Both the position numbers and the translations under genes were made by a program. This document shows positions 5,013 to 21,008 of a DNA stretch of 24,928 bases, in pieces. The DNA is from a virus: positions 1 to 24,928 of IMG/VR virus record IMGVR_UViG_3300005663_001084. One strand, 5' to 3'. The notes beneath the pieces were generated by a model that had not been told where the DNA came from, ran no database searches, and worked only from the letters and a program-made list of their open reading frames with translations. Positions within the stretch are counted from its first letter, which is position 1. Each line of letters opens with the position of its first letter.

Positions 5013-5705
5013 TCAGTCCAGGCTCCACCCGTGTTTGATAACGTCCATTGTGTAGGCTGCCCCATGGGTGAACAGGCAGTCCAGGACTGACATGCGTTCT
5101 TGGAATCCAGGATATATCTGGGGGTACGAATGGCAACGAAATCTTTGAAAAACTGCTTGCAAGTTGTGCTGGCGGGCGTGGTCCGGGAGAAGCCGCTGCT
5201 TGAATGCCGAACTGCTCAGGATCACCCGGCCACCCGCCGCGCGGGCGACGTTGAGCGAGAGCGTGAGGAAATCGTCCGTATCGAGGCTCAGCACCTGGGA
5301 CGAGTGCGCGATCCGGGTCTTGATGCCCAACCAGTCCCGGATGAGCAGGATCAGCGTGTAGTTGAGATCGAAGACCGTGGCCGAGGTCTTCAGAGCTTCC
5401 CGGATCTCCGGCGCGTACTCTTTCCAGTACGCGGTCTCGCCGTATGTCCCGGCCAGAAGCATCCAGGCCATCTCGATCTCGTGGAACGGCCGGAGCCGCG
5501 CCTCGGCGACCCGCTGCTGGGCGACCTGATTGACCGGGATGACCAGCCACGTCCAGTCGGACTCGGTGCGGATACGGTTCCGGTTCTGGAAGTGGCGCTT
5601 GCGAAAGTAGGTTGTATCGGTGAGGACGAACAGATCCGCGTGCAACAATTGATTCCAGAATCCTAACCATGGGATGAACTCTGGTTGGTGGACGCCGACG
5701 ATCAC
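5013..5705 (-). CDS. WbqC-like family protein (PF08889-like) of unknown function, a family typical of polysaccharide / O-antigen loci.
   Basis: The N-terminus IVGVHQPEFIPWLGFWNQLLHADLFVLTDTTYFRKRHFQNRNRIRT...WLVIPV matches the WbqC-family signature (QP.Y.PW.GYF..I...D.FV.LDDVQ....W.NRN.I). GTG start at 5705 is preceded by GGAAGGG. Confidence 0.75.
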   Translation of the reverse strand: MIVGVHQPEFIPWLGFWNQLLHADLFVLTDTTYFRKRHFQNRNRIRTESDWTWLVIPVNQVAQQRVAEARLRPFHEIEMAWMLLAGTYGETAYWKEYAPEIREALKTSATVFDLNYTLILLIRDWLGIKTRIAHSSQVLSLDTDDFLTLSLNVARAAGGRVILSSSAFKQRLLPDHARQHNLQAVFQRFRCHSYPQIYPGFQERMSVLDCLFTHGAAYTMDVIKHGWSLD

Positions 5706-6381: not shown

Positions 6382-6936
6382 TCAATCTGACTCGGTATGT
6401 CGAGTTTCCGCTAAGGTCCGGATGTCGTCCCTCTCACCGGGGGATACAAAATCCAGTCCCAACTCCTCGAACAGGCTCTTCTCACAGGGAGTTACGAGCT
6501 TCACATCTTCACGCTTCAAGCCCGACGCACCGAACTTCAGACCCTTGCTGCCCGCGAAGACCTCTATCATTTTGACAAACGGGACCGGCCCGTTGGCGTG
6601 GAGCATGGCCGCGCCCAGTTGCTCGGGCGGGATCACCAACCAGGAGACGTTCCCGTCCTCGAATTCGACGTAGTCGTAGATCTTGAACTTCTTGATCTTG
6701 CAGCCAGTGAACTCAACCTCGGCCCGGGACTTGATCTGAGAACGCACGTCGCCGGAGTCGGCCGTCTCGCTGAGAACGCCTACCACGCATAGCTGCTTCA
6801 CCTGGGCCTTCTCCGGCAGGCGGTACAGTTCCCCGCACGGGAACGTCTCGATCACGCCGGTCCCCGCCATGCACGACATGATCCGTGCCGCGAGCGACTC
6901 AGCGCGCTCGCGGCTCCAAGTTGTCTTAGCCGCCAT
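6382..6936 (-). CDS. Hypothetical protein of 184 aa.
   Basis: ATG at 6936 with GGAGGA upstream. A repeat-family promoter lies 20-55 nt upstream. The track ORF 6382..7053 N-terminal extension is rejected. Confidence 0.7.
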   Translation of the reverse strand: MAAKTTWSRERAESLAARIMSCMAGTGVIETFPCGELYRLPEKAQVKQLCVVGVLSETADSGDVRSQIKSRAEVEFTGCKIKKFKIYDYVEFEDGNVSWLVIPPEQLGAAMLHANGPVPFVKMIEVFAGSKGLKFGASGLKREDVKLVTPCEKSLFEELGLDFVSPGERDDIRTLAETRHTESD

Positions 6937-7012: not shown

Positions 7013-7042
7013 TTGACATTCGCCAAGGCGAGGAGGTATAAC
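7013..7042 (+). promoter_or_regulatory. Sigma70-like promoter TTGACA-N18-TATAAC for the plus-strand AdoMetDC-family gene. The ATG is 9 nt after the -10 box, so the leader is very short or absent.
   Basis: Read directly. The aggagg at 7031 lies inside the spacer and is too far from the ATG to serve as an SD. Confidence 0.5.
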
Positions 7043-7051
7043 GACTTGACC

Positions 7052-7441
7052 ATGGCTTACGGCATCGGACTACGTATCGAAGGGCACGACTGCGGGAACG
7101 CCGCGATCCTCCGCGACGAGGAGGCCGTCCAAGAACTGCTGGTGACCGCGATCCAGGTCGCAGACATGACCCTGCTGGCCGGGCCGTTCTGCACCGAAGA
7201 ACTGACTCGGGACATCGGCAAGGGTCCCGGCCTCACAGCCTGCGCGATCCTGTACGAGTCCCACGTTGTCATCCACACCTATCCGGAACAGCGGTGGTTC
7301 CTGTTCGAGATGACCACCTGCAAAGAGTTCGACTCGGTCCGTGTCGTCAATCTCCTGAGAGCCTGGGCCGACTGCAAGACGGTCACCGACTGCACCGTCG
7401 TGGGCCACATGTTCCCCGAACCCGTTGAAGCGAATGGCTGA
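7052..7441 (+). CDS. Pyruvoyl-dependent S-adenosylmethionine decarboxylase proenzyme family (SpeH/SpeD class 1b-like), 129 aa. The substrate could be AdoMet, arginine or ornithine.
   Basis: CAILYESHVVIHTYPE matches the AdoMetDC self-processing motif (L-x-ESH-[LV]-SIHTWPE), with the serinolysis site at Ser70. The length of ~130 aa fits the small bacterial/archaeal form. This is an internal ATG of track ORF 6869..7441. Confidence 0.85.
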   Translation: MAYGIGLRIEGHDCGNAAILRDEEAVQELLVTAIQVADMTLLAGPFCTEELTRDIGKGPGLTACAILYESHVVIHTYPEQRWFLFEMTTCKEFDSVRVVNLLRAWADCKTVTDCTVVGHMFPEPVEANG

Positions 7442-7703
7442 TCTCCGCGAAACCATGCGCCGCGTCATGTGCCCGCTCACCGAGCGTATGACACCCACAT
7501 CCGTCGTTGGGCTGGCCCGAGCACACAGGCTGGCCGTCTCGGACGCTGAGGTGGTTGTGGACGAATACGGCAAGGACAAGATCACGCTCTTCCTGACGCA
7601 GCCCACCGAAGACAAGTACATCCGGGCCTTCAAGCGCGACCTGCGTAAACGCGATCCCCAAGCCGGTCAGGTCACCGTCCGAAGCCCAGGCGCAAGAAGG
7701 TAA
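7434..7703 (+). CDS. Hypothetical protein of 89 aa, translationally coupled to the decarboxylase gene.
   Basis: The ATG at 7434 overlaps the upstream TGA as ATGGCTGA. Confidence 0.55.
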   Translation: MADLRETMRRVMCPLTERMTPTSVVGLARAHRLAVSDAEVVVDEYGKDKITLFLTQPTEDKYIRAFKRDLRKRDPQAGQVTVRSPGARR

Positions 7704-7708
7704 CCGCG

Positions 7709-14397: not shown

Positions 14398-14808
14398 TTA
14401 TCCTTTCAGAATGCCTCGATCCACCAGTTGCTGTAGGCCGTTGAAGCGCGGCGCAGGAACATCATCTCTCCAGATCCACTGCGTATGCTTCGTGGACTCC
14501 GGATTCTGCGGCAAAATCCCCAAGTACGGCTTCGACTGGAGGATCGCGCACACGAAATCGTTCTCGTAGTCGACGTAGGTCATCAACGGCCGGTCGATTT
14601 CGACCATGATACCTACCTCTTCCAGGACCTCGCGGATGCCGGTCTGCTCGATAGTCTCGGTTCCCTCGACATGACCACCGGGAAACTGCCACAAACCGTT
14701 GTACGGCTCGGCAATCCGCCTCGAAAGCAGGTGCTTCTCGGCCCTGAAGTCAACGATGCGTACCGCGACACTGACCGTTTTGCGTACGGGCGGAGGTTTC
14801 ATACTCAT
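14398..14808 (-). CDS. Nudix hydrolase, 136 aa.
   Basis: It contains a canonical Nudix box GHVEGTETIEQTGIREVLEEVGI (Gx5Ex7REUxEExGU). ATG at 14808 lies immediately after the -10 box of repeat promoter copy 4, so the mRNA is leaderless. Confidence 0.85.
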   Translation of the reverse strand: MSMKPPPVRKTVSVAVRIVDFRAEKHLLSRRIAEPYNGLWQFPGGHVEGTETIEQTGIREVLEEVGIMVEIDRPLMTYVDYENDFVCAILQSKPYLGILPQNPESTKHTQWIWRDDVPAPRFNGLQQLVDRGILKG

Positions 14809-16889: not shown

Positions 16890-17327
16890 TTATTGGAGAT
16901 TCCACGAAACGGCCCACCCGTCGCCCGGTTTGCCTTCTCCGTCGACTTCGTGGTAGCTGGTGGCCGGAATTTCGTCGATACTCTCAAACGCGGTCGCGGA
17001 GGGCGTCCCAAAGGCCGAGACCAAGGCCCGGTACGACTTTTGAGACGTCACATCCGCTTCGACCGTCTTCACGCCCCACTCTTTCAACGACTGGGCTGCT
17101 TTTTGGGCCAGGAGCGTACCGTAGCCCCGGCCGCGATGTGCGGGCTTCACAAAAAGGTTGCCCAGGTGGGATTTCGTGTCGTCGAGAGTCTCAGTCGTCA
17201 CGTGGCCGACTTCTTCGCCCGCAAGGTAGGCGCGAAGAGTCAGACCGCCCCAGGGAGCCTTCATCACCTGGAAAGTGAGGCCCCGGGCTTCGTTGAGGAC
17301 GGTTCGGATGGCGCGTCGGGAATCCAT
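16890..17327 (-). CDS. GNAT family N-acetyltransferase, 145 aa.
   Basis: GNAT motif A is present: VKPAHRGRGYGTLLAQKA. ATG at 17327 lies 7 nt after a TATACT box, so the mRNA is leaderless. Confidence 0.85.
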   Translation of the reverse strand: MDSRRAIRTVLNEARGLTFQVMKAPWGGLTLRAYLAGEEVGHVTTETLDDTKSHLGNLFVKPAHRGRGYGTLLAQKAAQSLKEWGVKTVEADVTSQKSYRALVSAFGTPSATAFESIDEIPATSYHEVDGEGKPGDGWAVSWNLQ

Positions 17328-20124: not shown

Positions 20125-20151
20125 GAAGCTCCTGTAGCGATTGACGCCGTC

Positions 20152-20262
20152 CTAAACGATCTCGGTGACGAGCATGCCTAATTCAACGGCCTGGGTACGG
20201 GCCTTGTCGAGTTGGGCACCGTGGGCCGTCACTACGATAGCGTGGTGGAGAACGTAGCTCAT
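20152..20262 (-). CDS. Leaderless micro-ORF of 36 aa (MSYVLHHAIVVTAHGAQLDKARTQAVELGMLVTEIV).
   Basis: ATG at 20262 lies 6 nt after the -10 box of repeat promoter copy 7. It is below the 60-aa cutoff of the track. Confidence 0.4.
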   Translation of the reverse strand: MSYVLHHAIVVTAHGAQLDKARTQAVELGMLVTEIV

Positions 20263-20268
20263 ACCTGT

Positions 20269-20298
20269 GTTATCGGATTGGGGCAGCTATATCTCTTG
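20269..20298 (-). promoter_or_regulatory. Repeat-family promoter, copy 7. The -35 box is degenerate and the -10 region is GATAACACAGG.
   Basis: Minus-strand reading is GAGATATAGCTGCCCCAATCCGATAACACAGGTATG. Confidence 0.45.
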
Positions 20299-20368
20299 GT
20301 AATTTTGAAAATTAGTAAACCGAACGGACCCTGACCACCTCCCCGTACTTCGAGGCCTTGTCCCGGGC

Positions 20369-20497
20369 CTATTCCTCGCAGTCCGCTTCGACCCGGTAAT
20401 CGCGAGTGTACTTCGAGTCGGCAGGCTTCACCGTGACCAGGAAGTGGTACCGGATATGCTGACAGTGGATGTCAAGATTGGTCAACGCTGCGGTCAT
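20369..20497 (-). CDS. Micro-ORF of 42 aa.
   Basis: ATG at 20497 with GGAGA 7 nt upstream. Confidence 0.4.
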   Translation of the reverse strand: MTAALTNLDIHCQHIRYHFLVTVKPADSKYTRDYRVEADCEE

Positions 20498-20557
20498 TTC
20501 TCTATCTCCAAGAAGATCGAAGTGTTCTCTCCAACGTACGCCACAACCACGTTGAAG

Positions 20558-20746
20558 TCAAAAAATTCGTCCGCAGTTTTCCTCAGCGACAGCTTGAGTC
20601 ATCTGCGCGCAAAGTTCTTCCTCGATAGTCGGGCGTGGGCGGACCCAACCCCAGAGCTTCTGGACGTGGACCCAGGAGCCCTTCCCGACGACGATCTCGT
20701 AAACCCTAGACAGGAAGAGGATGGCCCTGTCCTTGAACGTCGTCAC
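20558..20746 (-). CDS. Small hypothetical protein of 62 aa.
   Basis: GTG start at 20746 has no SD. It may be coupled to the upstream micro-ORF. Confidence 0.3.
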   Translation of the reverse strand: MTTFKDRAILFLSRVYEIVVGKGSWVHVQKLWGWVRPRPTIEEELCAQMTQAVAEENCGRIF

Positions 20747-20770
20747 GCAGTAGTAGATCTGAAAAGCGGA

Positions 20771-20845
20771 TCAGCCACAGTACTCTCCCAGCGCCAGCAT
20801 CGCAATGCCGATCAGAATCCAGACCCACCCGTAGCTGTCACTCAT
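20771..20845 (-). CDS. Hydrophobic micropeptide of 24 aa (MSDSYGWVWILIGIAMLALGEYCG), possibly a membrane peptide.
   Basis: Its ATG overlaps the TGA of the upstream Zn-ribbon gene as ATGA. GGAAG lies 5 nt upstream. Confidence 0.35.
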   Translation of the reverse strand: MSDSYGWVWILIGIAMLALGEYCG

Positions 20846-20994
20846 GGTTTCTTCCAGACCGAGGTCTTGAAGTAGCACTTACGCGAGCAGTAGATCCGAA
20901 TACCCCACTGCTGAATGCTGATACGCAGTTGCTTGCGCGTGAAGCTCTTCTTGCAGACCGGGCAGGTTTTGGTCTCTTCAATGGTAGTTGTCAT
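20842..20994 (-). CDS. Zinc-ribbon protein of 50 aa (CPVC...CSRKC).
   Basis: ATG at 20994 with GGAG 6 nt upstream, just after the TAA of gene 21009..21332. Confidence 0.5.
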   Translation of the reverse strand: MTTTIEETKTCPVCKKSFTRKQLRISIQQWGIRIYCSRKCYFKTSVWKKP

Positions 20995-21008
20995 CAGGTT
21001 CTCCTATT

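Follow-up and report, generated by a model that had tools for sequence, protein, structure and literature searches.

A two-gene plus-strand island of an apparently large uncultured phage encodes a predicted pyruvoyl decarboxylase from a divergent branch of the AdoMetDC family

Enzymes derived from S-adenosylmethionine decarboxylase (AdoMetDC) that act on L-arginine were reportedly described by Giles and Graham in 2008. Switches of substrate among S-adenosylmethionine (AdoMet), arginine and ornithine are widespread in bacteria and archaea (PMC10407285). In phages, SpeD homologues have been described that act as AdoMetDCs in S-PM2, phiN3, P2559S and phiYs40, as an arginine decarboxylase (ADC) in the pelagiphage HTVC201P and as ornithine decarboxylases (ODCs) in a Lake Baikal phage and UCP01-04; they usually come without a spermidine synthase, and the SpeE of the host is used (PMC9992855). 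These genes are established auxiliary metabolic genes, known to alter host polyamine metabolism. Here we analyse a stretch of viral DNA of 24,928 nucleotides (nt), called the window below, which covers positions 1 to 24,928 of IMG/VR record IMGVR_UViG_3300005663_001084 and amounts to 25 kb of a 153-kb contig. Two genes on the plus strand of the window form an island, the first encoding a predicted pyruvoyl-dependent decarboxylase and the second a small protein that we call ORF89. An original prediction for this island had placed the decarboxylase among class 1b AdoMetDC proenzymes and had noted that phage homologues of this family have been neofunctionalised, as the ADC and ODC activities reported for phages confirm (PMC9992855). 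SpeD-family auxiliary metabolic genes of phages having already been described, what the locus adds is a branch of them that is apparently rare, divergent and restricted to phages.

The first open reading frame (ORF) of the island matches the Pfam family PF02675 (AdoMet_dc) over residues 9-104 with 55.2 bits against a cut-off of 25 (E 1.1e-14), and it matches PHROG 3125; the matching PHROG families are annotated as AdoMetDC. An AlphaFold2 (AF2) model built from ten homologues had a pLDDT of 90.3, and a Foldseek search with this model returned the AdoMetDCs of Thermotoga maritima and Aquifex aeolicus as the best solved structures (1tmi, 1tlu, 1vr7 and 2iii; E 1.7e-8 to 2.1e-7), with TM scores of 0.71-0.84 overall and of 0.77-0.84 to 1tlu, 1tmi and 1vr7. 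Phage and viral SpeD homologues were the top matches of the model in BFVD. The ORF contains YESHVVIHTYPE (that is, ILYESHVVIHTYPE), and its Ser70 is encoded by TCC at 7259-7261. In the T. maritima enzyme, S63, H68 and C83 are needed for self-processing and catalysis (PMC10407285); the residues aligned to them in the window protein are listed in Table 1, and E69-S70, H75 and C90 are invariant in all ten of its closest homologues within the clade described below. Across five relatives the dN/dS of the gene is 0.11-0.36, indicating purifying selection. Because the catalytic residues are invariant and the gene is under purifying selection, we consider the protein to be a real class 1b pyruvoyl proenzyme that is very probably active. 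Pfam, PHROG, the fold and the alignment of E69-S70, H75 and C90 thus agree with the class originally proposed and with Ser70 as the predicted pyruvoyl-forming residue.

The NCBIfam equivalog model TIGR03330 gave the window protein 48.7 bits, below its cut-off of 75.65. In a control with this model, the verified phage AdoMetDCs of phiN3 (28.9 bits) and P2559S (63.3 bits) were also below the cut-off, and a homologue fused to deoxyhypusine synthase, probably of ADC type, was above it (84.5 bits). Since verified phage AdoMetDCs fail this test and a probable ADC-type homologue passes it, the cut-off does not discriminate between functions, and we set it aside as uninformative.

The island appears to be transcribed from its own promoter. 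Nine bases before the ATG at 7052 ends a TTGACA-N18-TATAAC element that agrees with a sigma-70-type consensus at 11 of 12 positions. Searched for as TTGACA-N15-19-TAHAAY, the element has a single match in the window, where 0.03 are expected, and a single match in the related contig L001, at the homologous place. In a five-way alignment of the window with contigs L014, L001, L015 and L016, GTTTGACA and TATAACG are invariant and the 18-nt spacer is variable; fixed hexamers around a variable spacer are the footprint expected of a functional promoter. Of the consensus promoter claimed in the original prediction, the hexamers, their spacing and the distance to the ATG stand and are conserved in relatives, but it is not a perfect consensus, as position 6 of the −10 hexamer is C and not T. 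A leader of 24-30 nt with a purine-rich Shine-Dalgarno-like element is found in L001, L015 and L016 and is deleted in the window and L014, so that a transcript beginning about 7 nt past the −10 hexamer, which we infer to be near A7049, would have a leader of about 3 nt and be near-leaderless. The spacer itself holds a possible ribosome-binding site (RBS) followed by an in-frame TTG (Table 1), an arrangement shared by L014, and this start is predicted to serve only if transcription begins further upstream. The database copy of the protein (P0001, on a JGI contig of 152,928 bp) has 131 amino acids, which implies that the TTG at 7046 is the start used there.

The layout of the island is compact and recurs in relatives. 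The decarboxylase gene lies 115 bp from the divergent gene on its left, and 5 bases (7704-7708) separate the end of ORF89 from the stop codon of the convergent gene on its right. Judged by codon-position GC content and family matches, every other credible gene in the window lies on the minus strand. Therefore, the claims that these are the only two plus-strand genes, that they stand head to head with the gene at 6382-6936 and that they end 5 bp from the 684-residue gene are borne out by codon statistics, family matches and coordinates, with the caveat of a gene-poor segment of about 880 bp at 20125-21008. The order of a Pol X-like gene (−), the decarboxylase gene (+), a small ORF (+) and a convergent gene (−) is seen in the window, L001, L014 and L015, and a more distant decarboxylase homologue in contig L008 is likewise the sole plus-strand gene among minus-strand genes. 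No intrinsic terminator was detected after the island, where the scan was empty and the fold z-score was 0.01.

Table 1. Positions of the features discussed, in window coordinates unless a related contig (L number) is named.
Feature	Position	Strand	Remarks
−35 hexamer TTGACA	7013-7018	+	Inside conserved GTTTGACA; invariant in the window, L014, L001 and L015
−10 hexamer TATAAC	7037-7042	+	Inside conserved TATAACG; 18 nt past the −35 hexamer; invariant also in L016
Alternative RBS and start	GAGGAGG 7030-7036; in-frame TTG 7046-7048	+	GAGGAGG within the promoter spacer; TTG 9 nt after it
Decarboxylase gene, 129 amino acids	7052-7441	+	ORF read from the window; predicted class 1b AdoMetDC-fold pyruvoyl proenzyme
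Clade-specific loop E50-L-T-R53-D54-I-G-K57-G-P59-G60	7199-7231	+	Stands in place of HxFxPxG
Glu69-Ser70 codons, predicted self-cleavage site	7256-7261	+	Aligned to T. maritima E62-S63
His75 codon	7274-7276	+	Equivalent of T. maritima H68
Cys90 codon	7319-7321	+	Equivalent of T. maritima C83
ORF89, basic ORFan of 89 amino acids	ATG 7434 to 7703	+	Starts 8 nt inside the end of the decarboxylase gene
Divergent left neighbour, mini Pol X-like protein of 184 amino acids	6382-6936	−	PF14791, E 1.4e-7; left boundary of the island
Convergent gene, 684 amino acids	7709-9763	−	No family match; right boundary of the island
NUDIX and GNAT genes, window	14398-14808; 16890-17327	−	
NUDIX and GNAT genes, L007	10755-11375		
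NUDIX and GNAT genes, L008	8054-8479		

Relatives of the decarboxylase are scarce. A word-indexed search of 5.8 billion protein clusters returned only ten, and when 1.84 billion representatives were searched exhaustively with a profile, 2665 family members had E <=0.001 and only 4 had E <=1e-30; from 221 bits the scores dropped sharply to about 80 bits before reaching a plateau near 70 bits. In a neighbour-joining (NJ) tree of 94 sequences and 118 columns, the 15 sequences with a GKGPG motif were monophyletic (bootstrap 95/100). This clade stood apart from every reference included in the tree, which, like our direct comparison, left out the HTVC201P ADC, the phage ODC sequences and the characterised SpeDA sequences. 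Members of the clade are all metagenomic and mostly singletons. Among 185,579 reference genomes (one per species) there was no member; the matches found there were four canonical SpeD-SpeE fusion genes (34-52% over partial matches), picked up through the shared word VIHTYPE, and we rejected them. One member was found in IMG/VR, on the viral contig L013, and a megablast search against cultured phages gave no match. The long contigs, an 84-kb IMG/VR contig among them, are phage-like and look like those of large uncultured phages: terminase and HNH genes adjoin the decarboxylase homologue on the 188-kb contig L002, the syntenic 55-kb contig L001 carries an Acb2/Tad1 gene, and PHROG matches are scattered among the ORFans of the window. 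Between the window and L014, the decarboxylase has a dS of 0.59 and 70% amino acid identity, against 0.23 and 91% for the flanking Pol X-like gene. This faster divergence fits the mosaic, moron-like behaviour of such units, and the pattern suggests an exchange of alleles confined to the decarboxylase gene.

Compared with class 1b AdoMetDCs such as T. maritima TM0655 (PDB 1TLU) and Bacillus subtilis SpeD, the window protein has the same fold, a similar length (about 130 amino acids) and the same ES-H-x-x-I-H-T-[WY]-P-E motif. It differs from them in that identity is only 18-23%, its loop is about 9 residues longer than their HxFxPxG segment, its Cys motif reads xxCKxF instead of FTCG, and no speE lies near the gene. 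The phage SpeD homologues of Li et al. likewise are solitary genes for small decarboxylases that do not depend on pyridoxal phosphate, with no partner aminopropyltransferase (PMC9992855). Identity to those of S-PM2, phiN3 and P2559S is at most 25%, and the window protein falls in its own clade, although it shares with phiN3 a long-form GP...SCKxF architecture. The clade belongs to the group with this architecture, along with the ODCs, the verified phiN3 enzyme and the deoxyhypusine-synthase fusions. As agmatine is used by SpeY (PMC13625781), these fusions are probably ADCs.

Two further subtypes invite comparison. The core ESH...IHTxPE...C is shared with SpeDA, and the canonical FxPxG arrangement is absent from both (PMC10407285). 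The typical context of SpeDA is a SpeY-like gene; such a gene is seen beside a relative from the most frequent large candidate sister group, other members of which are without it. By contrast, the window gene has no speY, speB or aguA/B nearby, and the deoxyhypusine-synthase fusions have Tyr at the position of Glu50. SpeDA has no positive sequence signature, so sequence cannot place the window protein within it. The window protein resembles SpeDC in its long-form architecture and in a Cys motif of the form SC with an aromatic residue after it, but it does not follow the SpeDC pattern Q-L-I-E-T-S...G-H-F-A-N...Y-x-D-x-F-S-C. It has none of the four residues around the cleavage site that are diagnostic of SpeDC (PMC10407285, Fig. 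8), A65, E69, T76 and F84 standing at the Gln, Thr, Phe and Tyr positions, which we deduced from the domains QLIETS...GHFAN...YxDxFSC of Fig. S5 in PMC10407285. On this alignment the ODC subtype can be excluded. We also noted AdoMetDC-fold domains fused to deoxyhypusine-synthase (SpeY-like) or spermidine-synthase domains, in P0129, P0138 and P0139 (546-581 amino acids) and at L010 4947-6083 and L011 4953-6032. These fusions could act as built-in functional labels, marking a probable ADC in the one case and a probable AdoMetDC in the other.

We favour, with a probability of about 0.6, a reading in which a large uncultured phage carries the island as an auxiliary metabolic unit of moron-like character, transcribed independently from its own promoter and encoding a proenzyme and an accessory protein, and in which this unit serves the polyamine supply of the host during infection. 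The sigma-70-type promoter would give a two-gene, near-leaderless transcript starting about 3 nt before the ATG. The proenzyme would cut itself between Glu69 and Ser70, and Ser70 would become the pyruvoyl group at the N terminus of an alpha chain of about 60 residues. Like its T. maritima counterpart, the processed enzyme would work as a dimer, and it would decarboxylate an alpha-amino acid held as a Schiff base on the pyruvoyl group, with His75 and Cys90 contributing to both processing and catalysis. If AdoMet is the substrate, the product would be decarboxylated AdoMet for the spermidine synthase of the host; if L-arginine is, it would be agmatine. The ORF89 product would be a lineage-specific accessory protein and not an obligate partner. 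The caution of the original prediction that sequence does not reveal the substrate agrees with published work (PMC9992855, PMC10407285) and with our motif tests. We tentatively put AdoMet at the head of the candidates, consider L-arginine and a substrate outside the three known ones each possible though somewhat doubtful, and think L-ornithine very unlikely. It had also been proposed that the island might serve DNA packaging or modification, or anti-restriction linked to AdoMet; these roles are speculation, and no neighbouring gene lends them support.

A number of observations weigh against a conventional enzyme in a conventional polyamine unit. A strict sigma-70 scan does not call the promoter, because C stands at position 6 of the −10 hexamer, and this base together with the 18-nt spacer makes the strength of the promoter uncertain. 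The NJ tree did not resolve the sister group of the GKGPG clade, and no characterised enzyme included in it fell in or beside the clade. The HxFxPxG motif, present in T. maritima, S-PM2, P2559S, Desulfotignum phosphitoxidans SpeD1 and two SpeE-fused proteins, is absent from the window protein, which has RDIGKGPG instead. The counterpart of the Phe of this motif in the human enzyme is F223, a residue that stacks on the adenine ring. Its Pro is probably the 'gamma' Pro that is fully conserved in bona fide AdoMetDCs (PMC10407285); in the window loop, which has no aromatic residue, the Pro comes directly before Gly. A canonical HxFxPxG is missing from the verified phiN3 enzyme too, so that its absence lowers the standing of AdoMet as the substrate and still leaves it a candidate. 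Within the loop, E50, R53, G56, K57, G58, P59 and G60 are invariant in the clade, and at the position of Glu50, at the end of the strand, Tyr or Phe is found in ADC-like, ODC and phiN3-type relatives. Given the missing HxFxPxG and the presence of Glu50, the pocket of the clade may differ from that of every characterised enzyme. Among the 41 window ORFs scanned with at least one family library (31 with Pfam), we found no speE, speB, aguA/B or speY, in keeping with the original remark that no spermidine synthase lies nearby. Contexts in the candidate sister group are mixed, with a deoxyhypusine-synthase homologue beside one relative and no polyamine genes near another, in a cellular genome. In a root metagenome (JGI 3300003322, L019 6001-6465), the homologue P0051 from this group lies inside an apparent biosynthetic cluster with genes for an ATP-grasp protein, a LuxR-type regulator, an MFS transporter, a radical-SAM protein, a B12-binding radical-SAM protein, an epimerase and a FemAB-like protein, which hints at a role of the AdoMetDC fold in secondary metabolism.

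These points could also be explained by a substrate specificity new to the fold, for neither AdoMet, arginine nor ornithine, and by a function other than bulk polyamine supply, the substrate being perhaps a different amino acid, the amino-acid part of a modified nucleotide or sugar, or an intermediate of secondary metabolism. The invariant E50-x-x-R53-D54-x-G-K57-G-P-G loop, which puts Glu50 at the aromatic position of the characterised subtypes, the monophyly of a clade with no characterised member and the company of two radical-SAM enzymes, an ATP-grasp and a FemAB-like protein around the candidate-sister relative all point this way. So do the neighbours in the window and related phages, which are nucleotide- or sugar-modifying and not polyamine genes: NUDIX, nucleoside hydrolase, WbqC, GNAT, glycosyltransferases and epimerases. 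We nevertheless hold this explanation to be rather unlikely, as the loop need not line the active site, no neighbouring gene accompanies the decarboxylase consistently from one clade member to another, and the experimentally tested phage homologues all act on AdoMet, arginine or ornithine (PMC9992855). The more specific proposal that the GKGPG clade is a fourth functional type of AdoMetDC-fold pyruvoyl enzyme, in which Glu50, Arg53 and Lys57 of the loop would recognise another substrate, seems to us rather unlikely. If it were true, the phage would make an amine product not yet linked to infection, whereas an ordinary AdoMetDC or ADC would merely extend the known catalogue. The branch is well delimited, with catalytic residues intact and the substrate-side loop remodelled, and this makes it a candidate for a further specificity switch. 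The locus also offers a clean case of a moron-like unit whose promoter is backed by a phylogenetic footprint, in large phages of a group that is otherwise uncharacterised.

Alternatively, the enzyme might have AdoMetDC chemistry and have been selected to deplete host AdoMet, by analogy with the AdoMet lyase of phage T3, as a countermeasure to restriction or other defences that depend on AdoMet. A promoter of its own on the opposite strand, as in a moron or early gene, would suit such a role, as would the excess divergence of the decarboxylase over its flank between the window and L014, the counter-defence gene Acb2/Tad1 in L001 and the lack of a spermidine synthase among the window genes scanned. 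We think this improbable: a dN/dS of 0.2-0.36 shows purifying selection of the ordinary kind and no trace of an arms race, AdoMet specificity is doubtful because HxFxPxG is absent, and solitary phage AdoMetDC genes are common and usually explained by the SpeE of the host (PMC9992855). Least credible of all is that the gene is a non-catalytic remnant, encodes a purely structural or regulatory protein or is not expressed. The equivalog score of the window protein would fit a remnant, but verified phage AdoMetDCs also score under that cut-off, and the invariance of Ser70, His75 and Cys90, the dN/dS of about 0.2-0.36, the conserved promoter and the confident model all speak for a working enzyme.

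The second gene of the island, ORF89, is a real coding gene according to its dN/dS of 0.05-0.43. It gave no match in Pfam, PHROG or NCBIfam, and its family comprises three clusters among the 5.8 billion clustered proteins, all from the closest relatives; the AF2 model (pLDDT 80) has a generic alpha-beta-beta-alpha-beta fold. We considered ORF89 as a conserved partner of the decarboxylase and rejected this, as the co-directional ORFs that follow the homologues in L002 and L013 (117 and 110 amino acids) and L007 (123 amino acids) show no homology to it in hhalign (probability 0.2%). In L008, no small co-directional ORF follows the decarboxylase homologue. The original description of a coupled 89-residue protein is therefore right as to the 8-nt overlap and the lack of a family match, with the refinement that only the closest relatives have the protein, which is no conserved partner of the decarboxylase. 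Between positions 7052-7703 of the window and 1156-1807 of L014, ORF89 is 94% identical and the decarboxylase 70%, a mosaic divergence.

The recognisable domains among the neighbours of the island in the window are a nucleoside hydrolase, a WbqC-like protein, the Pol X-like protein, NUDIX, a weak PRAI-like match and GNAT. The 184-residue Pol X-like protein has palm and thumb only and is similar in size to Pol X of African swine fever virus; four relatives have the gene, conserved and in synteny, and its dN/dS of about 0.2 points to purifying selection. Aligned to Pol X of Thermus thermophilus, VDLRVVPPE matches VSWLVIPPE, so that the third catalytic Asp corresponds to Ser98 in the window protein, and by our own reading the GS...DxD region is presumably degenerate. 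For the convergent gene, which had no match in Pfam, PHROG or NCBIfam, L001 has a syntenic gene of 690 amino acids. No tRNA or Rfam element was found across the window. On neither strand does the gene-poor segment at 20125-21008 hold a convincing gene, and it has a lower GC content (about 0.56) and no repeats, tRNA or Rfam matches; within it, a plus-strand ORF of 143 amino acids at 20444-20875 was considered as a third plus-strand gene and rejected, having no homologue and no PHROG match.

Genes for NUDIX hydrolases and GNAT acetyltransferases are a recurrent feature of the few kilobases around the decarboxylase homologue in different phage contigs (Table 1). Phage spermidine N-acetyltransferases have been reported by Li et al. 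(PMC9992855); the GNAT of the window matches generic acetyltransferase models only. A WbqC-like protein is encoded at 5013-5705 on the minus strand (PF08889, E 3e-43) and also in the syntenic phage contig L001 (7929-8621, minus strand). Bacterial polysaccharide clusters are the usual setting of this family, and glycosyltransferase, epimerase and sulfotransferase genes are present in L001 and L007. At the left end of the window, an uninterrupted minus-strand ORF of at least 925 codons (3-2777) runs out of the sequence. Its last 230 or so residues form an inosine-uridine-preferring nucleoside hydrolase domain (PF01156, E 6e-75; PHROG 8702), and the approximately 700 residues ahead of this domain have no family match. 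The GC content over 3-2777 is 66-68%, against about 58-60% elsewhere in the window.

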